A stretch of 64,000 nt of DNA from Geosiphon pyriformis uo1 (Eukaryota > Fungi > Glomeromycota). Made by a program: the position numbers and the translations under genes. The notes beneath the pieces are model-generated. The model saw only the letters and a program-made list of their open reading frames with translations. It did no database searches and was not told the origin of the DNA. This document shows positions 1 to 63,137 of this stretch, piece by piece; positions within the stretch are counted from its first letter, which is position 1; the number at the start of each line of letters is the position of its first letter. The stretch is taken from NCBI GenBank assembly GCA_016748015.1, contig JAAOMT010000571.1, positions 685,095-749,094 of the forward strand, in the 5' to 3' direction.

Positions 1-2864
1 ATTATTTATACTGTTATTTAATAATTAGTTAATATATTATAATATTATTATTTTTGATTTTTGTTAATTTCTATTGAGTAATATTATTTTTTTCTTAAGA
101 TTAAGTTCCATTGAAATCAATATGCTTTTTTCTAATGTTAATATCTAACATAAAAGTTTGTATACTTGTTTAGACTATTTATTCTTACAAGTCCTAAAAT
201 TTGTTATTAATAAGCTTTCTAATTCTATTAAAAATAAGTATGTTTATTTTGTTTGTCAACAATACTTTTAAACAATATTAAAACAATATGTAAAGTTAGT
301 GTGTTGCTTTAAAACAGTGCTTAGAGTTGTTTTTTCTAGTTAATTTTTCAAACTTTTGGAGTTTTGTTTTGTTAATTTCTTTGCTATTTTTTCTAATATA
401 AATTGTTTAAAAATCTAATTGTGTAACTATTAAAAAGTGTGTATAATAAAAAGAAATAATTAAGTTCATTTCTTTTTTGGGTATTGTACTTCTTAAGAGC
501 TAGAATTTTTCCATAATTTTATTAATTAATATGTCAGTATTTTTTTGTTTTTTATGATAAAAATTAAAATATTTTGTGTTTAGGTTATTTTTTTGTGTGG
601 CTGAATTTTTTTTTATATGATATTTTAAAATTATTAAAAGTAATTTTTAATAAAAAATTATTTTTTTGTAGTAGTTAAAATAAAAGTTGAGAAGTATTTA
701 TAATATCTTTAGATATATTCATAATAAAAATAAATAATAAATAAATATTAAAATGAATTATTTTTATATATTAAAATTTTAAAGAAATTTTTTTAATAGT
801 TTAATGTTTCTGATTTTTCTAATTATTTTTGAGATTGTTTTAATTTTTTTTAAATATTAATAATAATAATCCAAATATAGTTGATTAATTAATTGTCTCT
901 TAAATAATGTTTAATGATTACTATTGGCTCCAAATCTTATGGAATTTGGTTAAAAGACACAATTAGTATATGTATTTTTAATTCAAATATTAATAGATCA
1001 AATAATTATTATTATTAATAGATTTTTAATTAGTTATTATGTGCAATTTTCTTTAAAATTTTATTGTTTAAACATAACTTATATGTTCTATTACCCAAGA
1101 CATTGTAGACATAAAAAGATCTGTTTCATTTGTTGTCAAATTTTCTGCTTTATTGTTTTTCTGTTTTTGTTTGACGTAATAAAACTTTGTCTCTTATTTT
1201 GTAGACAATAAGTTGTTCTGAAAGTTTGCTATTGTGTTAAATTTTTTGTTGTTTTTAAAAATACTTAATATTATTAATTGTATATTGGTAATTGCTTTTT
1301 AGTTTTTTTAGCAGTTTGTAAGTTCATCTTTTAATAATTTCTTATAAGTTGTTCTCATTTATTAGTTTTGTTAAATAAGTATTTATTATTAGTTCTATAA
1401 ATAATATAGCATTCTTTTACATGCTAATTTGAATAGTGTGAATTTTGTAGTGTTATGTTTTAGTATTTAATAAGCCAATAAAACTAAAGAGATAAATAAA
1501 TTTTATTTTTGTTACATTTTATTGCTTATTTTTGCCAGTGATTTACATAATGTTTTATTAAAATGTTTTATTAATTCATTTGTCTATAAATAGTAAAATA
1601 ACAAAAAAAATTGTTTTATCTTAAAATGTTGACTAATTTTAGCAAGCAAATTGTTTATAAAGTAAGTTTTTTAATTTAAGAATAGTTTTTTGAACAATCA
1701 TGTCTATAAATCAAATTTTCATATATAAAATTAGCAATTAATTTAGCATTTGTAATTTTAATGACTCTTGATTCTGGCTATTTTGTTAAATAATTCATAG
1801 TAATTACAATATATTGATTCTTTTTAATAGTAATAGTTAGTAGTTTTATTAAATTAATTTCTATTCTGTTAAATGGTTTTTTTATTTTAATAAATTATAA
1901 CAGTTCAGTTGTTTTTGATCTTTTTTTTTTTAATATATATTGTAATTATAAACATATTAAATAATATCAACATATATTTTTGGCCAATAGTATTAATTGG
2001 TTGTCCATTAAATTATGGCTTTTTTTGCAAAGTATTTTGTGTTTAAATCTAAGTACATGTTTTAAAGAATAATTTTTTTTTCAATTTTAGTAATTACTTA
2101 AAATAGATTATATTGATTGCATTGGTATAATATATTGTTTTTAACCAAATAATGTTTAGCTTATTTCTGAATTTTTGTTTGTTCTTTCAACAATAATTTT
2201 ATTAGATAATTAGAAAATTGTATAAGGTAATATATCAGATATTAGTGTGTTTTAGTGTTTATTTTAATTAAATAATAAGTGATTTTTGATGGTTATATAT
2301 GTTTTATTCGAAATAAACAGTCTGTATTTGTGTTTTTGGTTTTTTTTTATAAATAATATTATATATATAGGATTATAAGGTAGTAATTTATTTAACATAA
2401 TGTTTTTTTAATAAGTTTTTGTTTATTAACTAGATAAGTTCTTTGTGATTTGTAATAATATTAATTAAATTATATAACAAATATTGTTTAAAATATTTTA
2501 TGGCCTATACAATTACAAAGCATTTTATTTTATGAGTTGTGTAATTTTTTTTGGCTATGCTTAGATTTCTGTTAGCATATGTAACTACATATTTTTTTCT
2601 TTTTTTCTTTTGTTATAATAATATAACACATAGATCTGTTTTAAAGATATTAGTTGTAAGTACAAATTTTTTGGTAAAGTTAAAGTATACTAAGATAAAA
2701 GCTTCAGTAAGTCTTTGTTTTAAGTAATTGAATGCTCATTCTTGTTTTTTATTCTATTTTTATATTGTATTTTTAGCTAATAATTGATTTAATAATTGAG
2801 TCATTATTGAAAAGTTTTTGACAAATCTTTAATAATATAAAAAAGTCTTAAAAATCCTTGAAGT

Positions 2865-9572: not shown

Positions 9573-12500
9573 TTATCCTCTTCAAAGAGATTAAGCTTCA
9601 GCAAAATCAAGTTATTCATGATGTAATTATTTGAAAAGTTTTATCTAACTCAAAGCTAACTAGTTTGTTGAAGTCTTTTGTGAATAGAATATATAATACT
9701 TAAAGTGAAATAAGTTTTGTATTCAAGAGACCAAATCTTTGTATTAGAGTTTTGGTTCTTCTAGCAATAATTAAAACTCTTGGAACATCTAACTATATAA
9801 TGTCCAAAATTTTTGCCTGTATTTTTGAAGTTGTTTTCTTTATGAGTTTTATATTTTCTATGATTTCTCCAAAGTGACCATAGAATTTTAATTGCTTTCC
9901 ATATGACAAATTTTTGTTTATGTGCAAGATTTCTTAGATTGTTTTTCCAATTGTGCTAGAAGATGAGAATATAACTGCTGTTATACTTTCTAACAGATAT
10001 TTATCCATTTTGCTATCAATTCTTTTTCTTCTGGTAATGGTTTTCTTTGGTCTAATAACAATATGTATTCTATTGTTATCTATTATAGTAGTTTGTTTTT
10101 TAATAGTTAAAGTAGCATTTGGATAGTTTTTAATCCAATACTCATGAAGAGTATAGAAGGCATTTTAAATGTTTTGATTCAGAAAATAATTGTTCATGTT
10201 AATTAAAGATATCTCTGTTTTAGAAATGGTGCATTTATTTATACTTGATTTTTGTTAATTATTTAGGTCAGTATTATCACAACAAACAACCAATTAAGTC
10301 GTTTATGATATTTCTTAAGTTGTGTACCATAAATAAAATGATCATTGAAAATTGTTCCAGATTAATTTTAAAGAATATAAAAATTATTGTTTAAAACTTT
10401 GTTGATTATAAAGAGTTCTTTCTATCAGCTAGAGAATTTATTACCATAGACATTGTTTTTGTCTGAATGGTATTCTAATATCAAGTCACCAACACTTAAA
10501 AAAAGTGTTTTATAGGTTTTTTTTTTAAGCTTTTCTTGAAACTGTTTTATTTTTTTAAAAGCAATTATTTGTGTTTCTATCAAAGAGTCAAGAATGATAC
10601 CAAGTCTTCTTTGCAAAATGTCTTTGTAATTTTCTATTGTGATTTCTTTAAAAGATATTGTCTCAATGTGAGTTTCTATTAGTAGTATTGTCATGTGTTC
10701 ATAAAACAAATAAAAAAGTTCATAATTTGTTATGTCATAATTTACAGTTTTATAAGCAAATAAGGCTGAAGGCAGTACTTTGTCCTATAAGTTTGTTTTT
10801 TTACTGGTTTTGGTTAGGGTTTTACATAGTGTTCTATTGAAACATTTCACTAGGCCATTTGTTTGAAGATGGTAAAAAGAAAAAAGTTTATGATGTATTT
10901 CTATTTTTCTACAAAGTTTTTTAATCAATATACTGAGAAAAGCTCTTTTTCTATTAAATAAAAATTCTTTGAAGCAGCCATGATGACAGATAATATTTTT
11001 ATAAATAAAATTGGCTATTAAGATTGCTGTTTTGTCTGAAGTGGTTCTTGCTTCTACCCACTTTGTAAGATAATTGGTAGCTGTGATAATGTATTTGTTG
11101 CCATTAGGAGTTATTGTTAAAAGTCTAACAACATCTATACTAATTCTGTCAAATAGTTGACCAACAGAGATTGGATAAATATCTTCTTTGCGATTGGATT
11201 TGTCTTTTCTTTGGTAAATGTTACAGGTTTTGATGTATTCAACAATGTTTTTTTTCAAAATAGACCAATAATAGTGAGCTAAAGTTTTCTGAATTGGTTT
11301 TGTTTTTCCAAAGTGTCCAGCTAATAGGTCAGTATGCATGTTGTATATTACAATTTCTTTTTCTTCAAATTTAATGACTCTCTGAGGGTGGTTAAAATTT
11401 TTTCTGTTTCTTTTATATAATTGGTTCTGACAGATTAAATAGAAATTTGATTGTTTGTGCAAATGTTCTCTTTGCTGTCAAGTATATTCTGATGGGTATT
11501 GTTCTTTATCCAAAAATTCTATTAAGGCAGAATAGTTGTCTAAGTCTATTATTGTGTTTGTCAAAAAAGGAGTTATTAATAATTAAGGTGAGTTGGTTTG
11601 AGAAGCTTGTACTATTATTGGATGGTAAGTCTAGAAAGAATGTCAGCATTTTGATGATTTGTTCCTTTGCAGTATTGAATATCATAGTTAAATTCATCCA
11701 AGTAGAGTATCCAGCAAGTTATTTGTTTGTGTTCCAGCTTCTTTTTATTGTGCAGCCAAACCAAGACTTAATAATCTGTTACTATTAAGAATTTCACATT
11801 AAAAAAATATTGATCCTAATAATTAGTAACCCAAATTACTGCTAAATATTCTTGTTCAGTTACTAAATAATTTTTTTCTGCTGGTGTAAGAGATCTATTA
11901 ACATATGCTATAGCATATTCCCTGTCATCTTCATTTTTTGTGAGAGGACAGTACCAAGTTTATAGCCAGATGTATCAATGTAGAAAATAAAAGGTTGGTC
12001 CAGATCAGGTTGCTTAAGAATTGGTTCAGTAACAAGTTTTTCTTTTAGAATTTCAAAAGCTTTTTGTTGATAAGTGCTTCAATAATAATTGACATTTTTT
12101 CTGAATAACTGATTGAGAAAAAAAACGATTTTAGAGAAATCTTTGATAAATTTGTGATAGTAAGAAGCCAAACCAAGGAAAAAGCATAGTTCAGGAACAT
12201 TTATTGGTTGTCTAATGTTTTGAACTTTTTCAACTTTAGCTGGGTCAGAAAAAATTCTATCTTTTATAATAAAATGACCAAAAAACTGAGTGAATTGGTG
12301 TTCAAAGAAAGATTTGATTGGGTTGATCTTAAGACAAACATTTCTGAACAGGTCAAAAACCTTCTGTAAATTTTCAAGATGTTTATCCCAGGTTTTTGAG
12401 TAAACCATTATGTTATCTAAGTAAACCAGAACAAAGTTTTCTTTTACTGATTCAAATACTTTGTCCATTAGGCATTAAAAGATGGGAAAAGCATTGGTAA

Positions 12501-15500
12501 GACCAAAAGCATGACTGTAAATTTATAGGTGTCATATTTAGTAATAAAAACAGTTTTCTTTCTGCTTTCTGGATTTATCTCTACTTGCCAAAATCCAGTA
12601 GTTAAGTTAATGGTTGAAAAAAAAGCAGCACTATTGAATTTATCTAGCATTGCATCAATTTTGAGAAGTGAATATATGTTTCTTATAGTGATGGCATTTA
12701 ATTGGCAGTAGTCAATACAGAAACATAGGGTTTCACTTTTTTTGGATATCACTACAACTGAGAAAGCTTATTTACTCTTGGTTTTTTGTATGAATCCAAA
12801 GATTTTTCATCTGGTTTATTTTTTTTTTGATAAATTCATCATTGTATTGATTGGATTGGTAAGGCTTTAAATAGATGGGACAAGTTTTTTTTGTGATAAT
12901 AATATGTTTTATCACATAAGTTTGTTTAGGGATATCACTTTTTTTTGAGATAACTGGGCTATTTCTAGCCAACAGATTTTCAATGTCCACTTTTCTTTCT
13001 TCAGAGGAAAATTCTTTTTGTTTTACAACTAGTAATTGTATTTTAGAAGATTCATTCTCAAAAAACTTCTGTACTTCTTTTAGTTCTTTTCTGGGTATCA
13101 AACTAATTGGCTCTCAATCTTTGTAATAGATCAGGCAGAACTTACATTCATCACTAGGAGAATACAAAGATTTATTATATCAGTATCTGGTACAAGAGCC
13201 ATGCTATCAATAATTGTATTTTGCTTTCTTGCCAGGTTTTTTATCAAAGATTCTTTTAAGAATATTATAATAGGGCCAAAGAACAGCTTGTCATTTACCA
13301 TGATTTTTTTTTGTTAGCTTTAATATTGTCCAGTAGCTTATCATTGCTGGTGAAGATAATATAGACAAGTTTAGCAGTTTCTTCTTGTTCTTTTTGATCT
13401 TTTTTTTTATTGCTTTCATCATTATCTGATTTATCTGATTGTTTTTCTTTTTGGTTTTACTTGGGTACTGAAGGGGTTGTCTAATGATGGCACTTAACTA
13501 CAATAAGCTTTTCACCACATCTGATAGTTAGTTCACAAAACTCATAGTCAAGTAATGCTTTGGCTTTCTTGAACCACTCATTGCCAACAATTATGATGTA
13601 CTCTTTTGCTTTAGATATTTCCATATCAGTTTCAATGCTGATACTGTTAATGTGAACAGGAACAGCTTTGACTATATCCAAGCCTTTCTTTTTGTTATCA
13701 TGTACATTGGTTATTAGTTTAGTTGAAAGTTCATCAATCTTTCTGCCAATTGCTTCAAGGAAATGTTTGGCAATAACACTAATAGATGATTTACTGTCTA
13801 AAATCAGATCAATAAAGTAACCAGCTACTTGGACTTTGCAAATTAGAAAAGTGATATTGCTATTGTTAACAAGTCTAGCTTGGCAAGAGTGCTTGTTGGT
13901 TTTTGGTGTTTTCTTCTTTGGGATCAGTGATTTGTAAAGATTTTTTCTAAACAGTAGATGGGTCATTAACTGACCAAAAGTAATATGTACTAGGGTTTTC
14001 ATAAAATCCTTTATAACAAAATAGAGTCCAGATTTTTGTACAATTTCTGGGGGTTTCAACTTTGGAGGATTCTTAAAAACTTTGGCATTTGGTGGCTTAT
14101 TGTTATTAGCAGTGGAAGTTGAGACTTTATTGGAATCTAGAACGAAATCAACCTTGGCTTTTTTCTTTTTTTTTGTTGAGTCAAAGGGGTTGATTGCTAG
14201 TTTATTCATATTATAATCATCATTAGTTGAGTTAAAGATGTAAAAAAAAAATTTTTCTGGTTGGCTTGTACTCTTACTCTTTGAAAATATGTTTACTAGT
14301 TTAAAGACTAATAAACAGTAGCTTTAACTAGGAGATTCTCTCCAAAGAAATTGATGTTGGCATGATTGGATCTTTAATTAGGAACATTGTTGTTGATAAT
14401 TCTGTTGTTTTGATTATTATTATTTCTAAGAGCTGGAGGTGGCAAAGAAAAATTGTTGCAATTTTTTGAGAAATATCTAGTTAATCTACAGTAATAGTAC
14501 ACAAATAGGCCATGATTTTGCTGTCTTTGGTAAGAGGGCTGCTGAGACTAATTGAAATGTGGTTCAAATCTAGGTTTTTGTGGTTGCTGGTTGTTTCTGA
14601 CTGCTTGGGCTAATAGTTCTAATAGCCGAGCAAAATTTGCTGTAAGTCTATCTATTAACTGTTTATTGAAGTCTTGAATTTGGACAGTAAAAGAGGTAGC
14701 AGCTATTTGTGAAGCAGGAGCCATAGCAGAAGCAAAAGCAAAAACTGGAAGAGCAGATTCCAGGTGCATCTTTTGGTTATCTTCTATTTTCTGGACAAGT
14801 TCAATAGCCATATCTATTGTGAGATTATCTTTTAAAACTAGAAGGGGCCAAAGAGCATATGACAGATCTGTTTTCAATCTTTTTATAAAAGAATAAATCT
14901 TTTGCTCTTTTGTTCAGTTTTTTCCAGAGTCTACTCTTTTAATTAACTTTTTGATGACTTTGGCATATTCAGTTACCACTTTACTGAGACCTTGGGGTTT
15001 TTTTTTAGTTCCATGTATTATTTAGAAATTAGGATAGTAGTTCTGAATTTATTTTCAAAGTGAGTAGTAAAAGAGATATTTTCTTCTCCAGCATTTGTTG
15101 GTGCCCATCTAATAATTTTTTGCTAAGCATTGGCATTGGTTTTTTGTGAAAACCAAGTAGCAGGAGAGCCTTGAAAGTAGCCATCAATGATTTGGAACTT
15201 GTATTTATTATCATATTGGTTGGCTGTGGTAGCTTTTTTAAAATCATTCAACTATTTAATTAGATCTTATGTATCACTTCTGAATAATAGTAGTAGAGTA
15301 TTGTTTCTTTATTTTAAAGCAGTTTGTGTGCTTTGGAAGATGATCAAAATGTTTTGTTGTATAGAGTTATTAGCCATTGGTTCAGGAGTAACTGTTTGTG
15401 TGGAATGTTTTGATTCACTTGAGAAGAGATCAAAAACAGGAGCAGTTTGATAGCTTTCTTCTTCTGTTTCAAAGGGTGTTTTAGCTAATTGTTCAAATGT

Positions 15501-15886: not shown

Positions 15887-16660
15887 TGTTATGGGTTGGA
15901 GTAATAAGCTAACAAATAGCAAGAAAAAACAAGATTATAGAATAATGAAAAGAATCAAAGAAAATTCAACTTCAAAGAGCAAATTAAATAAATATGGATT
16001 CAATGTGTAAGATTAGTCTTATAAAATATTTCAGTCACTATACTTTTTAAAAAATAACTAAGGAATCTGAAGATAAAAAGATAGTCCATACTGTCAACAA
16101 ATAATTACACACTGGTATAATTCTATGTCTTATGTTGGTGTTTTTAGAATTCAATATCAGGTATTAGATGTACTTTTTAGTCATATTTTATTCAATAATC
16201 TTTAAATGCTACAATTATACAAGTCAAAAAAAGGGTAGGTAAATGCCAACAAATAATTTTTTATTCTAAAATGTTCAGATACTTGAAAGTAAGAAAAGAG
16301 AATTTAGCAATAAGAAAAAAATTGAGATAAAATTGTTATTTTATTTCTTTTATTTCTTTGATTCTTACATGCTTTTTTATAGCTAAGAAATTTATCACTT
16401 ATATAGTTATTAAAAGTAATTAATGATCAGATTAATGATTAGGTCAATAATTAGGTCAATGATTAGGTTAATAATCAGATTAATGATCAGATTATTGATC
16501 AGGTCAATAATCAGGTCAATAATCAGATCAATGATCAGATTAATGGTCAGATTATTAATCAGATTAATGATTACTATCTAAAAATAGAGTAGTTAATTAT
16601 ATGATATTAGTGGCTAATACATGTAATAATTAATAAGAAGTATAGGCTTCAACCATAATA
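15887..16660 (-). repeat. 5' LTR of element B (774 bp)
   Basis: Direct repeat of 8883-9572, adjacent to the PBS, with an expanded 12-bp array at 16422-16565. Confidence 0.9.
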
Positions 16661-44100: not shown

Positions 44101-44990
44101 CTTAATTTCCCCAAATTTAAATACTGTGGTAACAATCATATCTTTAGGTGTGTCTATGGGAATTTTTTTAATTGTCACAGCCCAATCTGACCTCATTTCT
44201 TGTCTTTTAAGATTGCTGTTTACATCGATCTCTTTTTCCCTGGCCAATGATATGGCCATTTCCATGCTTTTTTCTAAAGTAAATGTTGAATGGATAATTT
44301 CTTCAAATTTTGAAGGGATAGTGGCCCTCCCAAAACCATTGACTGTTGAAAAAATTTTCCTAATGAACTGAGTCTTTGCCATAGCAGATTTGCCCTCTAT
44401 TGCCAAAAAGTTGATGTCCAAAGCAAATGATTTTCTAATAGAAATTTTTACAGAAGTTTTCACAATTTTAGGATTTATTCATTTCCTTTCCAAAGATATA
44501 CTAAGGGGAGGTGAAAAGAGTTCCATCTTTTCTTCCATTTCATAATTGGGAGAGCCAAGAGGGGACCCAAAAATCATGCCGGAATTCACTCTATTTGCTT
44601 TAGGAGTAGTAGCTGCTAAGCCTAAAAGCAACCCACCATTAATCTTTTCTATGACTGTATTGTCTTCACCACAACTAGACTTACTATCCATGTTCAAGTA
44701 CATGCCATCAGAACCAAGTTTGACTAAAAAAATGTCCCTTTCATCACCTGAATGTTTAACATTACCAAAAACCACTTTTTTATTTTGGGAGAAAGAACCA
44801 CCAGCAGGACTGTGGATAGTACTCTTAGGTGCCTTTTTCTTAGACATATTACTATCAGAAGCAGCTTTTAAATCTATGATAAAGGGATTATTAGTTAAAG
44901 AAATGTTGATATAAACTTAACAAGAAAAATAAAAACTTCTTTTTCAGAAAATGCTCTCTTTAAGGATTATTTGAAGGTAAGAGAGAAAGA
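38190..44990 (-). mobile_element. Near full-length decayed non-LTR retrotransposon (LINE): ORF1 plus ORF2 APE-RT-RNase H
   Basis: ORF1 fragments 42988-44847 with a decayed CCHC (KCGKFGYSALEC). APE motifs ITETKL, GGDFNE, IDFIF, DTDH. RT QDMHKAYDSV, FVDN. RNase H IYTDG, YLDSQ, KVKGHSG. Short A-run plus (AAT)n 3' tail at ~38190-38214. The 5' end is approximate. Confidence 0.92.
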
Positions 44991-48800: not shown

Positions 48801-50640
48801 ATTCAAACACCAGCTTAAATGACACCAAACAACCCAAGATCTAGAATCACTCAAAACTGGAGATCAGTGATGGTTGTTTACCAACTGATTCTCAGCTCCT
48901 CACAACATCCAACAGGATTATAGTTGCAGAATTTGGGAGCTGGGCCCACCCAAAATCTGAATTTCCAACAGTATTTAAGTCTTCTGATTACTTCAGAAGA
49001 CACTCAATCACACAACCCAGAATTCAATCAACAATCCATACTTACCAACAACATCCCATCAGCAACCATTATGGAAGACAAATTACTTACTGCAATATTT
49101 CTTTTTAAAATTGACAAATCTTCAGAAGTCCTGTTGTTTAATGGAGCTGCCTTTAAAGAGAAACCCATAACTGTAATGTATACTAATACCAAAGTTAATA
49201 GTCAGTCCATCAAACTAATCCTAGATAATGGATCAATTGACAACATCATTACCAAGCAACTTATGAATCAATTAGGTTGCCAAGTTGACTGCACTGCCAG
49301 CACCAAAATCATTACAGCTGATAGAATAACAAAAACTTCTATTGGTAAAATAGACAACTTCCCTATTGAAGTCAACAACATCACAGTACCAATCAAAGTT
49401 CTGGTTATAGAAGCTACTTAGTACTAAGCTTTTGTTAGTAATGACTGGCTGTCCAAAACAAATGCAATGCTTGACTGGACAACACAAGAGTTGCAAATCA
49501 GTCAAAACGACCAACACATGCAAGTACCAGTGACATGTGGTTATTTCAGACCCAGCACTATAACACGACCACTCATTGACTTCAAGAAAAAGAAAAAAAA
49601 CCTACTTGGGAAGCCTATCAAGTATTGTGCACTGATGAAAACCACAATGAACTACTGCCAATACTCTCCTGGGATGACAACAGAAAAAAAAAACAAAAGG
49701 AAAAACTTACTTGAAATGCAGACCAAATTTGAGAAACTAACAATAACTCAGACAAACTGCCAACCTGAAAATGGGAAGAAACCAACAAAAAGAAAGGAAA
49801 AAAAAAAGAAGAAAACCTATCCAAAAGAACCACCACCACAGAAATAACTAGTGGCTGGGAAAGAGAGTACTTATAAAAACCAATAAAGAAACCACCATAC
49901 ATACCTCTCAAATGCAAAGACTGTGAAAAGAAACTTTCTTCCATGAGAGCTTGGATGGCACCAGATAAAGACTACTGAACATGCACACATTATTACTGTA
50001 AGTCATGTTATAGAGAACAATATGAGTATCCAAAACATTAAGAAAAGTGGGACAATGAGCCATGTTTTGCTTGCGGTAAACAATTACTTGATGAAAAAAT
50101 GTGGAACAACATCTCTGGTTAAAGGGGAACATGTGATGCTTCATGCCAGTATACAATTTTCATCAGTGACTGGGTAAGTTGTAGAACATCTGTTACTGCC
50201 ACTTGGCACCAAGCAATCTTTCACTTGGATGGTTACCCACACAATGAAAACAAGATCTGGTGAATAGCCAATGCCAAAATAAAAAGTGCTTTACCCAGCA
50301 AAATTCTGGAGATAAAAAACAATCCTTCAGAACCAGTTGACATAGTTTTTATCCCCAATTCAGACATCTTTTTGAATATTAAGACAGGCCCAGAGAAATT
50401 TCATGAGCATTATCAAAACTTGGCACCAACAAAAAAAGAACAAGAACAACATTTGGAAGAAATAAACATGAGACTATGTAAATACTGTTTGATCCCATGT
50501 GACTTTCAATATTATAATAAGTGTAATCTCATTTACAATTCACCAACATGCATGATCTATACAATTCCAGAAGAGGAAGAACCAATTAATAGCTACACAT
50601 TGGAATTGAAATTAGATTTTGATCCCAATTCAAACTCCGA
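45836..50640 (+). mobile_element. 5' half of Gypsy element D (same family as element C)
   Basis: LTR 45836-46703 (TG...CA), decayed PBS TAATGCTTCCTGTAAG, gag 46766-48560 with CYNCGKQDH knuckle, protease LILDNGS, Cys-rich insert. Truncated at the LTR of element C. Confidence 0.9.
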
Positions 50641-51488
50641 TGTTACAGGTAATTATTTCTGCTGTTAAATTAAATAACAAATCTGTAACTTGGTGTTCAA
50701 AAGCTACTTTCATGGATGAGGTTCTGCAAGTGTTGTATCTGAAGGTTTTGATGAAGTTCTTTGTATAATAGACAGAGATTCAATAAGGTCGATAATAGAT
50801 GTATCTTTCCAAAAGTTTTCCTAATTTCTTTCTCAGCGTGGTGGTCGGATTTAGTCTAGCAGTCATGCCCTTCTGGTAAGCTATCTGATAATATATAAAA
50901 TCCTACTCTTATTTCTGGGTCTTTTACCAAGCTATCCTTGATGTCAATAACTCAGCGCTTAATCTTTTTAATCAATTAGTATACAACAACAAAATCAAAG
51001 AAAGAAAGAAAATAAAATAAAGAAAATAAAAATAAAGAAAATAGAGAAAATAAGCCAAGACAATTTGGTACATTAGTATCTCGTCAATAGCCATAATCAA
51101 GAGCTATTGTTCTAGTGTGATTAAGTATCAATTACTATTAACATGAAGTGTTGATAGTAGAGAGTGGGTTGAGATATGGAATAATTATTTATTTGATGAT
51201 TGGGAACTGGAATGTTGCTTAGATTAAATCTAAACTGAGAGGTCTGTCTTTTCAGCTTCTAATCCTACTGCTATATATACATAATTGAGATTCTTCAATT
51301 CCTCAATTCTTTACAACAGGAATCCTGCAATTTCTTGTCAGGGAATCCTAAAATTTCTGGAATCCTGCAATTCCTCTGAGAGGAATTCTGGAATTCCATA
51401 TTTACTACATCTACTTCTAATTGGCTAATATCTACTGACTAATAATACTATATTTCCTATATTCTATGAGTAACATTATCCCTTCCTT

Positions 51489-52148
51489 TTAATATTGAGC
51501 TCTGTCGAAATCTAATTCTTTTAATTCCTCTTCTTGAATTATTTCTTGAACTTTTTTTTCAAGTATTAATTGTGTTATTTTATTTTGTAGTTCTTCAAAT
51601 TGGGCATTGGTCATTTTTCCCAATTGATTACTTGTAACTGTATCCATTGCTGTATTGAGTAAGATTTCTGGTTAGTCTTGAAATCCCATATATAGCTGGT
51701 AAATGGCTCAAGCTTGTGTGGTTAGATTGTTCTTTTCCACAAATTGTTCTAGTTGTCCCAGTATTGTGGTGTCAAATAACTGTTTTGTTTTGTTGGTGTA
51801 CAAGTTCTGGATATTTACATGTTGTCCCAAGTAAAAATAACAATAGTTTTTTGGAAATTGTTATATCCACCAAGTCCAAGTTTCTCTGGTAAGTTCTTGG
51901 CATAATCCGACTATTTGTTGTTTTTTCAAGGCCAATTTTATCTTGGTTATGATCTTGTTGACCACATTTTCAAGTCTTTTCTGTGCTTTGTTTTGTAATA
52001 TCTTTGCTGTATTTTTGTAACGAATGGTTTGTTGATTGATGGTAATTTCTATCTCCTGGTGTTGGATTAATTGAAAAATTTGTTGGGCTAGTGAATGGGT
52101 ATTGTCCATAATCTCCATTTTTCTGATCTTTTTTGTCGCGTCGACCAT
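51489..52148 (-). pseudogene. ORF3 of element C (220 codons, unknown function)
   Basis: Single frame from ATG 52148 to TAA 51489 with only point-mutation stops. Ends immediately before the PPT. Confidence 0.7.
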
Positions 52149-52171
52149 GTTTTTATATATTCTTTTGTTGA

Positions 52172-53552
52172 TCAATTGGATGTGTTGTTGTCAATGATAA
52201 TAATTGGTTCCAGATTTCGTGGAATCTTATCTGGTTGGACTAGTATTCTCTGTACTCCTAATTATGGAATATTACTGGTAGATGATGATGCTATATGGTG
52301 GTATAGTTTTAGTCGATCTTCATATGCTGCTTTGGTCAAGATTTTGTCGTTCAATCTTAATTTGTAAGCTCCATTTCCTAGAATTTTTTCTATGTGAAAT
52401 AGTCTGTCCCATTTGGGATCAAATTTTCCACTTCATTGTTTTTTTGCTTTGGTATGATGTAGTAGTACTTTGTCTCCAATTTTGAATTCAACTGGTTTAT
52501 CTGGTAGTTGGTTATCATGTCTTTTTTTTTGTTTCTCTTGTGACTTTTGTATGTTATCAGCTGCTTTTTATCATTTGTTTTCTAATGTTTCTATTAAGTC
52601 ATATGTTCTTCTCAACAATGTATTTTTGAAATTCTTTTCTGTTATTGGTTTGGTTGGGTATGTGCTGACTTCTATTTCCACTGGTAGTGTTGCTGTTCTA
52701 CCATATACTAATTCAAATGGTGTTGCTTGTATAGTATCTTGCTTCATTGTCCGATAAGCAAATAGTACTGATGGTATCAACAAATCCCAATCGTTCTGGT
52801 TTTTTTGGCTGAGTTTAGCTATTGCTTCACACAATGTTCTGTTGAATCTTTTGACTAATCCATTAGTTTGTGGATGGTATGGTGATAATAGTGGTCTCTT
52901 AATTCTGAATCTTTGGCTCAATTCTGTTAATGTTTTGTTCACAAAATGAGTTCTTTGGTCTAATAATAATTCTTTTGGACATCCATGTCAACAGATTAAA
53001 TCCTGATGAACAAATTTGGCAATGAATTCTGCATCCGCTCTTTGAATTGCTTTTGCCTCTGGTCATTTAGTGAGATAGTCCATGGCTATTGCTATGTATC
53101 TGTTTTCTCCGCTGGTGATTGTTAATGGTCCAATTAGATCAATTCCAACATGGTCGAATGGTTGTCCTACTTTGATTGGCCTTAATGGTTTACTGGATTT
53201 CATATCTTCTCTTTACTGACAAGCATCACAATTTTGAACATATTGGATGATGTCTGGATATATTGATGACCAATAGTATTTTTTTCTGGTTCTTTCCATG
53301 GTTGCTTCTTTGTGAAAATGTCCTGCTGTTGGATTTGAGTGCATGTTGAATAATATTGTCTCTTTCTGGTTCTGTAACTACTCTGGTTGATTAATCTGGA
53401 TCTTTTCTATTTTTCCGATAAAGTATATTTTGGTGAGTGATAAAATATTTTGATTGTTGTTTGATACTCTTTTGTTCCATTTGAGATAAATTCTCTTTGA
53501 ACTGTTGAGTGTTTATATAATGTTGAAGTTGTTGATATTTTTGTATGTTCAT
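52172..53552 (-). pseudogene. Integrase of element C, in its own ORF
   Basis: ATG at 53552, HHCC zinc motif, GIDLIGPL, SPYHPQTNGLVKRFN, GPY/F-like region. No chromodomain seen. Confidence 0.88.
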
Positions 53553-55449
53553 CTTTTGTTATATTTTTCGTTGGTATTGTTCTGGTTTTGTTATATTTTT
53601 GTGTTAAAATGTTCTTAGATTTGTCTCATTTGTAACAAACTGTCAGCATTTCTGTTGTCTTTTCCTTTTTTGTAATGTATAGTATAATTGTATGGTGTGA
53701 ATGCCATTTTTCATCTTGACTGTCTTTCATCTCCAAATTCTTGTTTTTGGAGTGATGTTAATCCCTTGTAATCTGTGTATACTTCAAACTTCTGGCTCAA
53801 GTATTTTTTCCATTTTATGACTGACCAGTATATTGCTAAGTGTTTTTGTTCTGGTGTTCTATAGTTCTTCTTGGCTGGTGTTAAATCTCTGCTGGCTTAT
53901 GCTACTAGATGTTCTCTGCTGTCTGGTTCTCTCTGAGATAATACTGCTCCCAATGCTTGGCTGGATGCATTGGTAGTAATGACAAATGGTTTGCTGTAAT
54001 CTAGATAGATCAGTACTAGAGCTTGAATGAGCTTTCTTTTCAGAATATCAAAAGCTTTTTGTTGACTTTCTGTTCATTTATATTTTGTATTTTTGGTTTG
54101 CAGTTGGTTAAGTTGCTGCACTATCTTGGAAAAGTTCTTAATAAAACATTGATAGTAGCTGGCAAATTCCAAGAATGATTTCAGTTCTGTCATATTGGTC
54201 AGCACTGGAAAGTTCTTTACTATCTCTATTTTCTCTGGATCTGTTTTGATGCTGTCTTTGCTGACTATGTGTTCCAAGAATTTTAGTTCTGTCTTGCCAA
54301 AAAAGCACTTTGTTGCATTTAACTTTAGTCCTGCTCTTCTTAGTCTTTTGAACACTTGTTGAAGATGATAAAAATGATTATCAAATGTTTTTGAGAATAT
54401 GTTGGTGTTGTCCAAGTATACAACTACGAATTTCCACAATAAGCCAGTATAGACAATTTTTATTAGCTGTTGGAAAGTGACTGGTGCGTTGGTTAAACCA
54501 AATGGCATTACTTTAAATTCAAAATTCCCTTCTCTTGTGGTAAATGCCATCTTCTCTTTGTCAGCTGGATCCATGACTACTTGCCAGTAACTACTGTTCA
54601 AGTCTAATGTTGAGAACCATTTGTTCCTACCAAAAGCATCAAATAATTCCTGTATTCATGGAGTTGGATAGCTGTCTCCATGAGTTACACCATTGAGTTT
54701 CCTGTAGTCTACACAAAATTAGATCTTTCCATTTTTCTTATGGACAAGTACCACTGGTGATGACCATGGACTCATTGATGGCTGAATTAGCCCATTGTCA
54801 AGCATTCAGTTTATCTCTTGACAAATAATTTTGTGGCTGGCTGGTGGCACTCTGTATGCTCTTTGTTTAATTGGCATTGCATTTCCAGTCTTAATCTGAT
54901 GCTGAATGATGTCAGTTTGGCCAAACTCATTTTCACTGGCAAAGATGTCTTTGAAATTGTTGAGCAACATCTTGAGCTACATATATTAAAGTGGATCTAA
55001 GTTTCTCATGTTTATTTGTTCCAATTGTTCTGGTTGGAGTAAATAATATTTGTCTTGTCCATAGATTGTTTGTAATGTGATGTTGACATATCCACAAAGT
55101 TGTGGAAAGTCTGAAATGGGGTTTGGTGGTTGGTCTTCTATTTCTGTGGTTAAATATCCAATGGTGGTTCCTTCTGGTATGTTAATAACATTGCCAGTGT
55201 TGTTGTAGATGGGAATTTTTATGCAATTATAATCTTTGGCTGGTATGTGGAGATTAATGAGTCCAACTTCTTCTGATTCACAAAAACTGGCTTCTGCTTC
55301 AAAAATTTGTGCTTGGTCTTTTTCTTTCCTTTCTATTGCTAGCATGTACTGGTTATATGATGAAATAGAAATAGCTTGACTGGTTGAGATAATTTCTCCT
55401 TGGCCAACAATTTCTTCCTCTACCATATTAACTGGTATATCTATTCTAC

Positions 55450-55840
55450 CCATTGATCCAAATTCCTGTATTCCTCTCACTATTATTCCTAATTTCTCCC
55501 TTTTTCCCACTGATACTAACTGAGTTATTCTAACCAGAGGCAGGAATATTGCCTGTGCTATCTTTTTGTTGGGCTCTATTATATAGGTCTTTTCTGAGTT
55601 ATTTTGTAACATAGCGATAATATTTCCTACATATCCCATGTTAATTATTCCTCCTCTTATATTAATCTCTCTTTTTGCTAGACTACTCCTAGATGCTAAT
55701 TGAACCATTGTTGTTGCTGGAATTTCCAGTGCTATTTTCAAATCGATGCAGGTGTGCATATGTGGTTCTAATTTGATGGCTTCTGTTCCTGGATATCTTA
55801 GATCAAATTCTGCATCAGTATCATACATGCGTTCTGGCAT
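55450..55840 (-). pseudogene. Trimeric dUTPase domain within pol of element C
   Basis: Decayed motifs 1-5 in order: DAEFDL, ASRSSLA, GGIINMGYVG, KKIAQAIF, RGIQEFGSMG. Confidence 0.93.
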
Positions 55841-58800
55841 AATACTTTTCCCATTGTTACTATATCATTTCAACTCTTGTTTCTTGGAGAGATCTGGTAT
55901 TGCAATGTATTGTTCATAGTTTAAATCGGAGTTTGAATCTGAGTTTGAATTGTCTTTGTTGTCATTGCCATTTTGAACGGAACTGGAACCAGTGTTTTTG
56001 TTATTGTCATCGGAGTCTGGATCACGATTGATCAGCGATTCTGATTCCGATGCACAGCTGCTAATTGGTTTTTCTTCTTCAGGGATCGTGTAGATTATGC
56101 ATGGTGGTGGATTGTAAATAAGGTCACAATCGTCACAATATTCAAAGTCACTGGGAATTAAACAATGGTAACACAGTCTTGTATTTAACTATGCTAGTTA
56201 TTGTTCTTGCTCTTCTCTAGTGGATGCCAAGTTTTGGTAGTGTTCATGGAACTCTTCTGGTTCCAGAAAATTTATGACTGGCTCTGTGTCCCAGTCAAGC
56301 TTAATGGGTTTTGGTGGGTTGTTTTTAATTGTCCTGATTTTTTCTGGTAACACGCCTTCAATTTTGGCAATTGCCATTTGCTATAATTCATCATTGTCAT
56401 GTGGACAACTGTCCAATTGCTGTACAGCTCTTCTCTAAGCGGCTTTTATGAATGTTCTTTTCTCAACCCAATTGCTGATAAAGATTGTGTATTGGCAGAA
56501 CACGTCACACATTTCTCCTCTTCCCGGAATGTCATTCCACATTCCTTCATTGAGGAGAGTTTCTCCACAGACTATACATGGTATATTATCCCATTTTCCC
56601 ACTTGTTTTGGTCTTCCAAAACATTCGACATGGCATGCATGGCAATAGAACTTGGTTGCCATCTAATATTCTTCATTATCGCCACAGCATGCGCCCATTG
56701 ATGACAATTTCTTGCCACAATCAATGCATATCAGTTTGGGTTGGCGATAGGTCAATAATTGTTGTTAACTGTAGGTGTATGGGATATAAGTGTTGTTGAC
56801 TTAAGTGTTTTCTTCCTTCCTCTCTTTCCCTTTTCCCTTTTCTTCTTTTTACTCCCAACTCAATGGTTCTTCCTGTTCATTGTCAGTCCAGATCAAATCA
56901 TCTGTTTCCCAGGTCAGTTCCTCTTTTTGCTTTCCCTTAGGGTTGTCGTTCCATGAGAGTATTGGTGGTAGTTCGTTGTGGTCAGCATTGGCCCAGAAAA
57001 CTTGATAAGCTTCCCAGATAGGTTTCTTTTTCTCCTCTTCCAGTTCGATCAATAGTTTTTCTCTTGGAGGAGTCTTGAAATGGCCACACGTGGCCAGTAC
57101 ACGTATGTGTCAGCCCTGATATGTTAGCTGAAATTCCTGGGTGTTCCAGTCTAACGTCACATTGACTTTGAATAGCCAGTCATTACCAATGAGAGCTTGG
57201 TATTGAGTGGCTTCCATTACTAGAACTTTAATAGAAGTATGCCATTGACTTTGAAAGGGAAGTCGTCAATTTCGCCGATTGGAGTTTTGGTCGCTCCATT
57301 GGCTGTGATAATTCTGGTGCTGGCAGCTCAATCAACTTGGTGACCTAATTGATCCATGAGTTGTCGTGTGATGATGCTGCCTGCTGAACCACTGTCAAGA
57401 ATCAATTTGAGGAATTGTCTCTCAACTTTGGTGTCAGTGTATATCATGGTGATTGGTTTGGCTTCAAGAGTGGCTTCACTAAATAATGACATTGCAGTTG
57501 TTTCCTCAAATTTGAATGGGAATATAACAGCCAAAGACTTGTCTTTGGTGATGGTAGCAAGTGGGATATTACTAATGAGTGGTTGTTTTTGGGCAAATAC
57601 TAGGTTATTGATTGGGACATCTTCTGGGGTAACCAGAAAACTTAAATAATTCTGAGAATTCGGGTACTGGGGTTGACTGGCACCCAAATTTCTCTGGCAT
57701 AATCCAGATAATTGCTGTAAAGAACTGGGAATTGGTTGATAGACTACTATTGCCGATCTCCAGCTCTGTTGAATCATTCTTGGTCTTTGGGTTCTATTGG
57801 GTGGTAAGCTTTGGAGTGGTGTTTGAATTTGTTGAGGTTAATAGATTATTTGTGGCTGTGGTTGTTGATAAATTACTTGTGGCTGCAGTTGATAGATTGG
57901 AGCTTGATACACCAGAGATTGATAGACTGATAACTGTATCACTAGTAGGTAAGCAGGTTGGTTTTAATTTGGGTATTGATTCAGAGTTTGGAACCAGTGA
58001 TTGGGGTTTCGATATTGGTTTCCCAATTATTGGTTATTTAAACACTGGTAACAGTCAATTTGGATATGTCCTTGTTTACCACAATAGTGGCAGATACACA
58101 TTTCCTGTTGCCATTGTTGATTGGTTAATGAAGATAAATGTGGCTGATTTTGGGCATGATTAAAGTTTTCTTGATTATTGTGTTATTGTGGAGGCTGATA
58201 AATGGTGTGATTGTCAGCTAAGTATCCTTCCAATCTCTTATTAATTGATTTACTGAACTTCTCTAATTTGGAATCCAATTCAGATAATTCGTTCATTACT
58301 AGATTAACAGCTTGGACGTGGTTAGCCTCTGACTCAGCAGATTCAAAATCTCTGGCATATGTGACTGCGTCTTGAAGGGTGCCTGGATGCAATGGACGTA
58401 CATGTTGCAAGATGCTGCTGCACAGGCCATGGATAAACTGGTTGAGTATCTGTGGGGCTGTGAAATAGTTGGCATTAATTGTTTGAATTTGGCACAGATT
58501 TTGATGGAAGCATCCCAGGTAAGTGGTAACTGCTTCAGTTTCTCCTTGTTTCATGGTGGTGAATGTATTGACTAGGCAATTGATGCTGTTATTGTTGCTG
58601 AAATATCTTAGGAATTCTGCTTTGAAGACATTGAAATCTTGTGGTTTATTAACCAAGCTCTAATATCATGAATTGGCAGTATTCTTGAGAAAGTAGGGAA
58701 TGGCTTGCATTGCTTAGGCGTCATTCCATCCATTGGTTGTAATGGCCTTTTCTACATTATTCAGCCATACTTGAGCATCATCCTTTTTGCCAGTAAAATT

Positions 58801-60743
58801 GTCAAGTTTTGCAATTGGTGCATAGGCCATTGGATCTAAGTTAGGTGGTTGTGGTGGCTGTTGAAACAGTTGTTGTTGTACTAGTTGTTGGGGTGGTAGT
58901 TGAAGTGGCTGTCATATAGGTTTGACTATAAGATTAATTGGCGGTTGATTGATGACAATTACCGGAGGTAAGTTTTGCTGATTAATTAATTTGGGGTTTG
59001 GATTGTTCTATCTTTGATGATTCGGAGTTTCGATTTCCAAATTTTTTAGATTTAGATTTTGTTGAGTTTGAAAATTTGGGGTTTCAACTTCTGGGTTTTC
59101 AGTGATCAGGTGCTGGTAAGTGAATTCTTAATCCTCTGATTCTTCTTCTTCTTTTTCTGATTCTGCTGCTTCCCATAGATCAGAGATTCCAAAATCTGGT
59201 GGAGGCAGTAGTAATCGAAGTCCTGATGGGATTGATGATTATGAATTAAATCCCTCAAAGTATTTGCCGTATGGTCCTAATAATTTTGTTTTCCTTTGTC
59301 TACTTTAGAATGGGAATCGTCCAAATGCTGATGTTGCAGTTAATGGGAATGTGTCTGCTGATGATATGTTGATGGCGCTTCCAGATATATAGTGATAGGA
59401 TGGGTTGCTTGGGGATTCAATTCTGTTTTTCTTCCAAGTAGGTGGCTGTATTTTTCTGGATGTTACTGCTGGTGTTTGTAGTTTTCCCTTGCCTTTACTA
59501 GCATATGTAATTAGATATCTTTGTTGAGTGTGGTGTTCAATTTCTTTGTTAATCTTAGTAATAATAGATGTGAAATTATGATTTGTTGATAGATTGGTGT
59601 TTTGAATTAACTCCTTATAGAAAGTTTTTCTTGCTGATTTAGTATTCACTGGTGTTCCTAATAAAAAGGAAATCTTTTCATTGACGTAGAAATTGAAGGC
59701 TGATTTGGCAGATATATGATTGTGGTTTAATCCCAAGTATTGACAATAGTGTTGAAATAAGGATTTTGCGAATCCTAAATAGTTTGCTCCTATATTTTCT
59801 GATTCTGCCACTTTTGGTTTGGTGTTGTCGGTGCTAGTTCTCTGTAGAATTATACCTCACAGGGAGCACCAAATGTTACAGGTGATTATTTCTGCTGTTG
59901 AATTAAATAACAAACCCATAACTTGGTGCTCAAAAGCTACTTCCATGGATAAGATTCTGCAAGTGTTGTATCTGAAGATTTTGATGGAGTTCTTTATATA
60001 ATGAACAAAGATTCAATAGGGTCGATAGTAGATGTATCTTTCCAAAAGTTTTCCCAATTTCTTTTTCAGTGTGGTGGCCAGATTTAGTCTGACAGTCGTG
60101 CTCTTCTGGTAAGCTATCCAATAATATATAAAATCCTATCTTTATTTTTGGGTCTTTTACCAGGCTATTCTTGACGTTAATAACACAGTGCTTAATCTTT
60201 TTAATCAATTAGTATACAACAACAAAATCAAAGAAAGAAAGAAAATAAAATAAAGAAAATAAAAATAAAGAAAATAGAAAAAATAAGCCAAGACAATTTG
60301 TTAGTATCTTATTAATAGCCGTGATCAAGAGCTATTGTTCCAGCATGGTTAAGTATCAATTACTATTAACATAAAGCGTTGATAGTAGAGAGTGGGTTGA
60401 GATATAAAATAATTATTTATTTGATGATTGGGAACTAGAATGTTGCTTAGATTAAATTTAAACTAAGAGATCTGTCTTTTCAGCTTCTAATCCTACTGCT
60501 ATATATACATAATTGAGATTCCTCAATTCCTCAATTCTTTGTGACAGGAATCCTGCAATTCCTGATGAAAGAAATCCTGGAATTCTGCAATTCTGCAATT
60601 CCTCACTGGGGAATTCTGAAATTTCTGGAATCCTGCAATTCCTCTAAGAGGAATTCTGGAATTCCACATTTACTATGTCTACCTCTAATTGGCTAATATT
60701 TACTGACTAATAATACTATATTTCCTATATTCTATGAGTAACA

Positions 60744-63137
60744 TCACTATTATTGGCCTACCTTGAGAAAAGACATTGCTGAATACATTAAAACTTGTGA
60801 TATCTGCCAAAGAAAAGGCAAATCCAATTGCAAAGAAGATATCCATCCAATCTCTGTTGGTCAATCATTTGACAAAATTGGGATGTTGTTGGACCTTTAA
60901 CAATCATTCCTGATGGCAACAAATATATTATCACAGCTACCAACTATTTTACAAAGTGGGTAGAAGCAAGAGCCACCTCAGACTAAACAGCAGTCTCAAT
61001 AGCCAATTTCATTTATAAAGATATCATTTGCCATTATGACTGCCCCAAAGAACTTTTATCTAATAGAGGAAGAGCTTTTCTCAATACACTGGTTGAAGAA
61101 CTTTGTAAAAAAATGGGAATATGTCATAAACTTTTCTCTTCTTATTACCCCCAAACAAATGGCCTAGTGAAACATTTCAATAGAACATTATGTGAAACCC
61201 TAGCCAAAACCAGTAAAGAAACAAACTTATGGGACAAAGTACTGTTTTCAGCTTTGTTTGCTTATAGAACTGTGAATCATGACATAACAAGTTATGAACC
61301 TTTTTATTTGCTCTATGAATGCATAACAATACTACCAATAGAAACTAACATTGAAACAATACTCTTTAAAGAGATCACAATAGGAAATTATAAAGACATT
61401 TTGCAAAGAAGACTTGGTACTATTCTTGACTCCTTGGTAAAAGCACAAATAATTGCTTTTAAAAAGATAAAACAGTTTCAAAAAAAGCTTAAGAAAAAAA
61501 AAACCTATAAAACACTTTCTTTAAGTGTTGGTGACTTGGTACTAGAATATCATTCTAACAGAAACAATGTTTATGGTAATAAATTTTCTAGCTGGTGGAA
61601 AGGACCCTTTATAGTCAACAAAGTCTTAAACAATGGTTCTTATATTCTTCAAGATCAATTTAGAACAATCTTCAATGATCGTCCTGTTCATGATATATGA
61701 CTTAAGAAATATCATAAACAACTTGATTGGCTGCCTGTTGTGATAATACCAACTCAATTGATCAATAAAAATCAAGTATAAATAAATGTACTATTCCCAA
61801 AACAGAGATATCTTCAATCAACATGAACAATTATTTTCTGGATCAAAACATTCAAAACGCTTTCTATACTCTCCATAAGAATTAGATCAAAAACTATCCA
61901 AATGCTACTTTGACCATCAGAAAACAAACAACCATAACTGATAACAGTGGAACATATACTGTTATTAGACCAAAGAAAACTACTACCAAAAGAGAAAGAA
62001 TTGGTAGCAAAATGGATAAATATCTGTTGGAAAGTATAACAGCAGCTATACTTCCACCTTTCAACACAATTGGAAAAACACTTTAAGAAATCTTACTCAT
62101 AGACAAAAACTTGTCATATGGAAGGCAATTAAAACTCTATGGTCACCTTGGTAAAATTATAGAGAATATGAAACTCATGAAGAAAACAACTTCAGAGATA
62201 CAGGCAGAAATTTTGGGCATTATATAGTTAGATGTCCAAAGAGTTTTAACTATTGCTAAAAGAGCCAAAACTCTAATATAAAGATTTAGTCTCTTGGATA
62301 CAAAACTCATTTCACCTCAAGTGTTATATACCTTATCCACAAAAGACTTCAACAAACTAGTTAGCTTTGAGTTAGATAAAACCCTTCCAATAGATTACAC
62401 CATAAATAGCTTGATTTTGCTGGAGCTCAATCTCTTTGGAGAGGATGATGTTATAGTTGAAACTTATACTTCTTATTAAAAATTACATGTATTAGCCACT
62501 GATGTCACATAAATTAGCCACTCTATTTTTAGTAAGTAATCATTGATCTGATCAATGACCTAACCATTAACCTAATCATTAACTTAGTCATTGATCTGAT
62601 CATTGACCACTTTTAACAGTTATATAAGTGATGAATCTCTTAGCTATAGAAAAGCATATAAGAATAAAAAAAATAAAGAAATAAAATAACAACTTCATCT
62701 CAATACTTCTTTTATCACTAATTTCTCTTTTTCTACCTTCAAGTATCTGAACATCTTAAAGATAAAAAACTACTTGTTGGCATTTACTTATTCTTTTCCT
62801 GAAACATGTAATTGTAACATTTAAAGATTATTAAATAAAACGTGACTGAAGAGCACATCTGATACTTGATATTAAATTCTAAGAGTGCTGACGTAAAGCA
62901 TAGAATTATACCAAGTGTAATTATTTGTTGACAGTACAGACTATTCTTTTACCTTCAGATTCCCCAGTTATCTTTGAAAAGTATAGTAACTGAGATATTT
63001 TATGAGACTGATCTCACACATTGAATCCATACTTATTTAATTTGCTCTTTGAAGTTGAATTCCCTTTGATTTCTTTTATCACTCTACAATCTTGTTCTTT
63101 TTTGCTATCTGTTAGCTTGTTACTCCAATCTGTAACA
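60744..63137 (+). mobile_element. 3' part of a family-B Gypsy element (B'): integrase, ORF3, PPT and 3' LTR
   Basis: Colinear with the reverse complement of 8883-11278. Integrase ORF 61113-61700, PPT GGAGAGGATGA 62438-62448, LTR 62449-63137. Confidence 0.92.
61823..62479 (+). pseudogene. ORF3 of family B (219 codons, unknown function), running through the PPT into the LTR
   Basis: Single frame MNNYFLDQNIQNAF...ETYTSY with four stops explainable as TGG>TAG, CAA>TAA and CAG>TAG. Homologous copy at ~9542-10197 (-). Confidence 0.7.

Follow-up and report, generated by a model that had tools for sequence, protein, structure and literature searches.

We examined a 64,000-nucleotide (nt) stretch of Geosiphon pyriformis uo1 DNA (the window; assembly GCA_016748015.1, contig JAAOMT010000571.1, positions 685,095 to 749,094), which holds several decayed long terminal repeat (LTR) retrotransposons related to Ty3/Gypsy (Metaviridae). 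The integrase of these elements lies outside the Pol reading frame, as a gene that begins at its own ATG behind a stop codon at the end of ribonuclease H (RNase H). The same arrangement was found in metagenomic relatives, several of them intact. We conclude that this lineage-wide split of integrase from Pol is real and not decay, and that the lineage is a new variant of Ty3/Gypsy.

A separate integrase gene behind Pol

Three elements in the window, all read on the minus strand, carry the junction. In element C (50641-60743), the region of reverse transcriptase (RT) and RNase H (53615..54985; RVT_1 E 2e-24) ends by translation in NADSLLQMRQI and a TAA at 53617-53615. It is followed by a 62-nt spacer (53553..53614; 38 A, 11 C, 9 T and 4 G) that lacks an ATG, and the integrase gene (52262..53552) then starts with ATG at 53552-53550 in another frame. 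The RNase H of element B ends in NADILSRLTIQ with TAA at 11617-11615. Its 65-nt spacer (11550..11614) opens with a second stop, TAG, directly after the TAA and is also free of ATG, and the integrase gene (10290..11549; Integrase_H2C2 E 2e-11) has a decayed start, ATA at 11549. In the heavily decayed element A (junction 2260..2328), RNase H ends in NTDCLFRIKHI with TAA at 2295-2293, and a 30-nt spacer leads to a likely decayed start, ATA at 2262, which was placed by its likeness to C. No fold was predicted for the spacers of A, B and C.

The sequence-only reading had described these three junctions as they are and had argued for design rather than decay from a frame offset shared by divergent families. 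The offset is indeed the same in C and B, where both spacers are 2 modulo 3, but A is in frame, and the argument is wrong because the spacers of relatives use all three frames. Design could not be proven from the window alone since all three copies are decayed; the RT-RNase H region of C, for example, has 7 stops in 454 codons. The proof is supplied by the family and the clade.

For family C, we compared 2,136 contig pieces from one DNA run that fall on 53500-53680. The pieces are about 100 nt each, none covers the entire junction, and their depth does not equal copy number. At the stop, no other letter reached 8%, and no insertion or deletion was seen in the spacer at that level. The stop is kept across the family. 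The integrase ATG reads ATA in about 19% of the depth, which is the G-to-A change that dominates decay here, and one contig omits 36 nt across the start. The integrase gene of C itself is decayed by stops and by a frameshift near 53362 that is private to this copy, as 12 family contigs have two more bases there. Because the pieces are short and possibly come from the window's own sample, they speak for fixation within the family and are not independent support.

Further support came from relatives. Met stood at one column in 11 of 12 aligned stand-alone integrase homologues, the twelfth being a fragment. Since that homologue search was length-limited, relatives were retrieved as DNA with integrase-core patterns that are neutral to split or fused form, and the analysis went on with the 80 best of 333 confirmed stretches. 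An ATG was present at integrase column 1 in 72 of these 80 metagenome loci. Six others begin inside the gene, and the remaining two (L033 and L037) proved on inspection to have an ATG behind a stop as well. Wherever the RNase H end was visible, a stop lay before or across the integrase ATG (49/49 loci). Several of the relatives have intact upstream gag-pol frames of about 944-1,621 codons and integrases of 410-450 residues. As a control, Met was within two residues of the integrase start column in only 3 of 70 long proteins from a search for fused forms. On the Pol side, the RT-RNase H protein P0039 ends 20 residues past its motif, and the same 495-residue length recurs in 12 of the 15 cluster members listed. 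These observations strongly support both earlier claims, that the integrase is separately initiated and that the arrangement is by design, and a continuous RNase H-integrase frame in intact copies, which would have spoken for the opposite, was looked for and the intact relatives turned out to be split too. The many stops and frameshifts of the window copies might have suggested that stop and spacer arose in dead elements, but this decay reading is already refuted by the intact relatives, and the invariant junction of family C and the length shared by most listed members of the P0039 cluster also speak against it.

The viral contig set contained one distant fused element (L001). The four closest long matches are Glomeromycota gene models that lack either the end of RNase H or the N-terminus of integrase, or have foreign sequence at that point. 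We read these models as probable products of predicted introns drawn across the stop.

Translation of the separate integrase

At an 80% identity cut the relatives formed 59 families, 41 of them with an RNase H end. Stop and start overlap in 13 of the 41 families (-20 to -1), unlike in the window copies, and a gap separates them in 28. The overlaps comprise TAATG (-1) once, ATGA (-4) twice, -8 six times and -11 to -20 four times. Spacers therefore range from a 20-nt overlap to more than 100 nt and occur in all three frames: the offset is 1 in 21 families, 2 in 10 and 0 in 10, and among the gapped families the corresponding numbers of 11, 7 and 10 show no frame bias (chi-square p 0.63). Further in-frame stops are present in 7 of the 10 in-frame spacers.

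The integrase start itself is well defined. A occupies position -3 in 44 of the 59 families compared with 36% at other ATGs (p 3e-9), and G occupies +4 in 48. The middle base of the second codon is A in all 59, so that the residue is Asp, Glu, Asn or Lys. NatB acetylation has Met-Asp/Glu/Asn as its signature. The spacers are A/T-rich, poor in G (10% versus 20% in RNase H) and poor in ATG. In 23 spacers of 20-160 nt, 7 ATGs were counted where 16.3 were expected, and none of 500 dinucleotide shuffles was as low; the 60 nt upstream of the same stops contain 20. This test left out L039 and L054, with spacers longer than 160 nt, and L041, L026 and L049, where spacers of 429, 827 and 943 nt result from premature stops in the Pol extension. 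In 18 of the 23 spacers no other ATG comes between the stop and that of the integrase, so that a first-ATG-after-stop rule fits most cases. Small open reading frames (ORFs) in the long spacers of L053 and L072 end on the integrase start.

One group of relatives has a structured junction. A bulged hairpin with an 8-nt loop, CANNGYGA, lies directly before the integrase ATG in L021 (589-641) and 21 other loci. Its cells are 96.5% paired, with compensatory changes at 8 of 10 pairs and far lower values for slid controls, in a structure that was drawn by eye from the same sequences that were scored. The model, built from 20 loci, finds 22, always in the same place, two of them being near-copies of training loci. 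It gave nothing significant in the window, the hairpin pattern had no match in the viral contig set, and a comparison of 16 loci with Rfam matched one of them elsewhere but not at the hairpin. A branch point and splice acceptor before the ATG of this group were considered and dropped, as the bases in question form the covarying stem.

We propose that Pol and integrase are translated from one RNA, with ribosomes restarting at the next ATG once they have completed Pol, a reading of the junction sequences that we consider somewhat favored overall. Restart is indicated by the stop-start overlaps, by the loss of ATGs that begins at the stop, and by the small ORFs of L053 and L072, which terminate at the integrase start. 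Among the mechanisms offered by the sequence-only reading, reinitiation is accordingly favored by the overlaps, the ATG-poor spacers and the strong start, and in-frame splicing is disfavored. Pol ends at a true stop after RNase H, where ribosomes would terminate. Restart would take place at the nearest ATG, immediately at junctions whose stop and start overlap, and following a short scan over an A-rich, ATG-free spacer at junctions like those of C and B. The product would be a free integrase with its own Met, made in smaller amounts than RT and requiring no protease cleavage. It follows logically that an integrase not fused to Pol needs another delivery route, as the sequence-only reading had also noted. 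Untethered to Gag-Pol, it may join the particle by binding RNA or Gag during synthesis on the packaged RNA, or it may meet the cDNA later in the manner of a DNA transposase. The RNA is likely polycistronic, encoding gag-pol, integrase and in relatives a fourth ORF, because the same type of junction recurs before that ORF.

Several points weigh against restart. The TURBS motif (a ribosome-binding site upstream of termination) is UGGGA shortly upstream of the stop, and a TURBS-like UGGGA was found before the stop in 2 of 41 families versus 1 of 41 in a control stretch, which is not an enrichment. ATGs do occur in 5 of the 23 short spacers, and the spacers of L039 and L054 (365 and 727 nt) contain 7 and 12. 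Overlaps of -8 and -4 come about readily, since a start of the form ATG-AAT-GA already contains a stop in another frame. Avoidance of ATG and a good start context would fit a capped subgenomic or spliced mRNA equally well. The stable hairpin that stands a few bases upstream of the ATG in 22 loci might hinder scanning and may point to internal entry. The fungal gene models P0044, P0045 and P0047 join RT to integrase and skip the junction. Finally, restart after a long ORF is described as exceptional, with RNA elements or a trans-activator needed in the known cases (PMC10275272, available in part).

Restart junctions in SART1, Cryphonectria hypovirus 1 (CHV1), Helminthosporium victoriae virus 190S (HvV190S) and cauliflower mosaic virus (CaMV) extend from 38-nt overlaps to 106-nt gaps, according to the accessible portions of PMC10275272 and PMC5902531. 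TAATG or ATGA overlaps like those of SART1, CHV1 and HvV190S occur in 3 of our 41 relative families, whereas the window copies have gaps of 30-65 nt and most relatives have other overlaps or gaps. SART1, CHV1 and HvV190S are also non-LTR elements or RNA viruses, unlike the LTR lineage studied here (PMC10275272, same portions). CaMV is closer in that a chain of long ORFs with a 3' accessory gene is found on a reverse-transcribing element, and its restart is reported, in what was available of PMC5902531, to be independent of distance, with junctions from overlaps to gaps of 60-106 nt. Caulimoviruses differ in having no integrase.

The main alternative to restart is that the integrase is translated from its own subgenomic mRNA, with an internal promoter located within the spacer or shortly upstream of it. 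The strong start context and the ATG-poor, A/T-rich, G-poor spacers resemble 5' leaders, frame and spacer length vary freely, and there are long spacers such as those of L039 and L054. In the overlap families, however, the mRNA would have to start inside the RNase H coding sequence, and 9 of these 13 have upstream ATGs 7-34 nt before the integrase ATG. The stop-start overlaps and an ATG loss that begins at the stop would be left unexplained as well. We regard this alternative as unlikely, though it is the one to be taken most seriously.

Splicing that joins the 5' leader to an acceptor upstream of the integrase start, as for retroviral env or foamy virus pol, is less probable. Foamy virus Pol offers a precedent, being made from a spliced mRNA and packaged without fusion to Gag (PMC3705302, as far as available), and an enzyme made apart from Gag needs another packaging route there as here. 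In foamy virus it is the whole of Pol that is separate, by splicing, whereas here it is the integrase alone (same source, same extent). The pyrimidine-rich spacers of L004, L010 and L036 also favor splicing, but AG is entirely missing from 7 of the 28 non-overlapping spacers. Downstream of the ATG that most closely precedes that of the integrase, no YAG is present before the integrase start in 13 of the 41 families (in 3 of which that ATG is in frame and harmless), and no common acceptor motif was seen across the 17 spacers displayed.

Slightly less probable again is internal entry, in which ribosomes would be brought to the integrase start by a structured RNA element, at least in the hairpin branch. 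The pairing and covariation of the hairpin and its occurrence once in each of 22 loci, always before the ATG, are what such an element would show. Against this, the hairpin is missing from the window elements and from 59 of 81 loci, and it may equally serve restart, feedback control or packaging.

Continued production of a fused Pol-integrase, with the junction crossed by in-frame splicing, readthrough or frameshifting, is very improbable. The fused models P0044, P0045 and P0047 favor it, and relatives apparently recode elsewhere, at single in-frame stops in L047 and L069 and at overlapping gag and pol frames in L010. However, either the end of RNase H or the N-terminus of integrase is missing from the fused models, as expected if predicted introns bridge the stop, and a conserved Met in a strong start context would be superfluous. 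With no frame bias, extra stops in most in-frame spacers (and TAA-TAG in B) and junctions without AG or YAG, neither readthrough nor frameshifting nor a shared splice acceptor fits.

Phylogeny and further features of the relatives

Integrase trees were built from 25 of the 59 locus families together with 24 of 120 long proteins, and RT trees from 21 loci and 28 long proteins. In the RT-RNase H tree (50 rows) a weakly supported branch (SH-aLRT 83) set the 22 split rows, C among them, apart from the rest. The free integrase trees had five or six fused proteins with long branches nested among the split rows, and when the 27 split rows of the 51-row integrase tree were held together the likelihood was above that of the free search (p-AU 0.895). 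The trees allow a single origin of the split integrases but do not prove it. Element C groups by its integrase with the split relative L007.

The split integrases also formed a group with two Ginger1-type proteins (P0049 and P0103, in which integrase is combined with OTU or Ulp1) and with five fused proteins, including a plant Tat-like Pol, apart from 17 other Gypsy proteins (SH-aLRT 95). This agrees with the YPYY cluster that Bao et al. 2010 (PMC2836005) describe in the available part of their paper. P0049 shares the Met start column of the split integrases, and likeness to Ginger1 extends to H2C2, the DDE core and a YPYY-type N-terminal region, the last judged by eye from the alignment. The split elements differ from Ginger1 in having LTRs, gag and RT, where Ginger1 is defined by terminal inverted repeats and no RT. 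Moreover, P0003 lacks a C-terminal OTU or Ulp1 domain, and split integrases end at about 410-450 residues. As the trees stand, the grouping would imply neither a sister relation nor a direction of descent.

Two unannotated protein families accompany the split in relatives. A Cys/His-rich domain follows an acidic linker at the C-terminus of Pol in L031 (4768-5076) and 16 other loci. It has no Pfam match and no Foldseek match, and its structural model is unstable (pLDDT 73, other models 46-54). Hairpin and domain were both present in 16, both absent in 39 and present singly in 2 of 57 judgeable loci; since most carriers belong to one branch, this co-occurrence is not independent evidence. After the integrase, a conserved fourth ORF of about 140 residues is found in L034 (1596-2039) and 27 other loci. 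The place is occupied by an ORF in 16 of the 28 loci with room for one, 12 of these ORFs being of one family, whose profile matches 28 of 81 loci. Its junctions with the integrase range from -8 to +174 nt, and the family comprises 527 clusters at 50% identity. The protein is predicted with confidence to be all-helical (pLDDT 94), and no Pfam family of note, no Atlas match and no Foldseek match at E 0.001 (best Z 4.4) was found for it. The missing match to this predicted structure would not indicate a new fold. Once, in P0219, the ORF is fused to an integrase fragment.

By position only, the fourth ORF is a candidate for an activator of the type of the CaMV translational transactivator (TAV); no likeness to TAV was found by Pfam and fold comparison. 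No TAV-like activator outside Caulimoviridae had been recognised as of 2018, according to the portion of PMC5902531 at hand. A more speculative and rather doubtful extension is that the fourth ORF switches on successive restarts on a polycistronic RNA in the manner of TAV, that the Pol-end domain binds the hairpin and so controls or packages the integrase, and that the lineage is a living intermediate between Gypsy and Ginger1.

Frames at the corresponding place in the window are decayed (9616-10197 in B, 51489-52148 in C, and 61823-62400). Their profile matches are weak, with E 1.5 for B, a non-significant E 2 for C, and E 0.019 for 62129-62368 in a sister fragment of B; the frame in C is a candidate by its position only.

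Other features were seen in individual relatives. A P-loop ORF with a weak thymidylate-kinase match (L033:2-784, E 3e-4) ends 3 nt before the integrase ATG, and in the Rhizophagus irregularis model P0047 a similar sequence separates RNase H from integrase. Otherwise open frames are interrupted upstream of RT by single in-frame stops in L047 (2881-2885), L069 (3289-3293) and L054 (2925-2929), where readthrough is possible; those of L047 and L069 lie between protease and RT. The gag and pol frames overlap in L010 (1930-1972), where frameshifting is possible, and form one frame in L028 and L031. An unannotated His/Cys-Trp domain stands at the start of gag, before the capsid region, in L028 (6801-7436), L031 (301-600), L057 (4636) and L074 (6341).

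Elements in the window and significance of the split

The window comprises several decayed LTR elements, a decayed element at about 38700-44500 that resembles a long interspersed nuclear element, and a group of adjacent host genes. LTR elements make up 41% of the G. pyriformis genome (PMC11952901, available in part), and 20 of 36 integrase matches were G. pyriformis proteins with 65-79% identity, over short stretches only.

Element C has the parts of an LTR retrotransposon. Its 5' LTR (59874..60743) and 3' LTR (50641..51475), identified by repeat search and LTR-LTR alignment, are direct repeats with TG...CA ends. They are identical at 761 of 830 aligned bases (92%), and 68 of the 69 differences are transitions. 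A primer-binding site that starts with TGG lies 2 nt past the 5' LTR (59855..59871); its tRNA is presumably that for Met. The polypurine tract is at 51476..51490. Between these lie a decayed gag region (58183..59856; Retrotrans_gag E 6e-7 on 58183-58659), a likely protease region (57328..57837), a dUTPase domain within pol in the RT frame (54986..55864; PF00692 E 9e-19), RT, RNase H and integrase, whose 3' end at 52262 may be a premature stop. The protease region has no Pfam match itself and was assigned from the related copy D, where 48924-49421 matches Asp_protease_2 (E 1e-5). A dUTPase domain between protease and RT is also found in element A (4462-5265). Element C is flanked by a truncated D on the left (50606-50641) and a truncated B-family fragment on the right (60743-60744). 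Because these are two different truncated elements without a matching target duplication, recombination between two insertions, or an assembly join, is suggested.

Element B retains a decayed RT-RNase H region (11615..12800) with 34-46% identity to C by tblastn, and its integrase is 56% identical over the full length to P0003, which has Met at the same start column. A 12-nt tandem repeat is present within LTRs of the B family (9400-9500, 16400-16590 and 62530-62690). Element A (1-9000) has 16-24% GC and is far more AT-rich than its neighbours. RT-RNase H seemingly occurs twice in it, at 4449-3684 and at 2849-2343, and the sequence that separates the two stretches is of the opposite strand.

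The LTR ends, primer-binding site and polypurine tract, the H2C2 and rve integrase domains, and the order gag, protease, RT, RNase H and integrase with an RVT_1-type RT (in C with the protease assigned through D, and also in relatives) are all those of Ty3/Gypsy. The lineage differs in its split integrase with its own ATG, in the fourth ORF of relatives and in the dUTPase of C and A. As the integrase lies outside the Pol polyprotein frame of canonical members, we file the lineage as a variant of Ty3/Gypsy. LTR elements are described with integrase as part of the Pol polyprotein (PMC3248453, available in part), and the available parts of that paper, PMC9963178, PMC11952901 and PMC12440569 do not mention a split. 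No description of a split integrase was found in the literature searched, which did not extend to Repbase, subscription journals or supplements, where a prior description is possible.

The split bears on the life cycle of these elements. LTR retrotransposons and retroviruses bring integrase into the particle as part of Pol; a large lineage without this fusion must solve the translation, amount and delivery of its integrase differently. Restart after long reading frames could be studied in fungi with this lineage as a natural test bed. The lineage also offers a concrete and testable route between Gypsy and Ginger1, a step left unclear in the available part of Bao et al. 2010 (PMC2836005). Annotation pipelines would class such elements as broken, and fungal gene models may bridge the stop with false introns. 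The hairpin, the Pol-end domain and the fourth-ORF family, all unannotated, are direct experimental handles.

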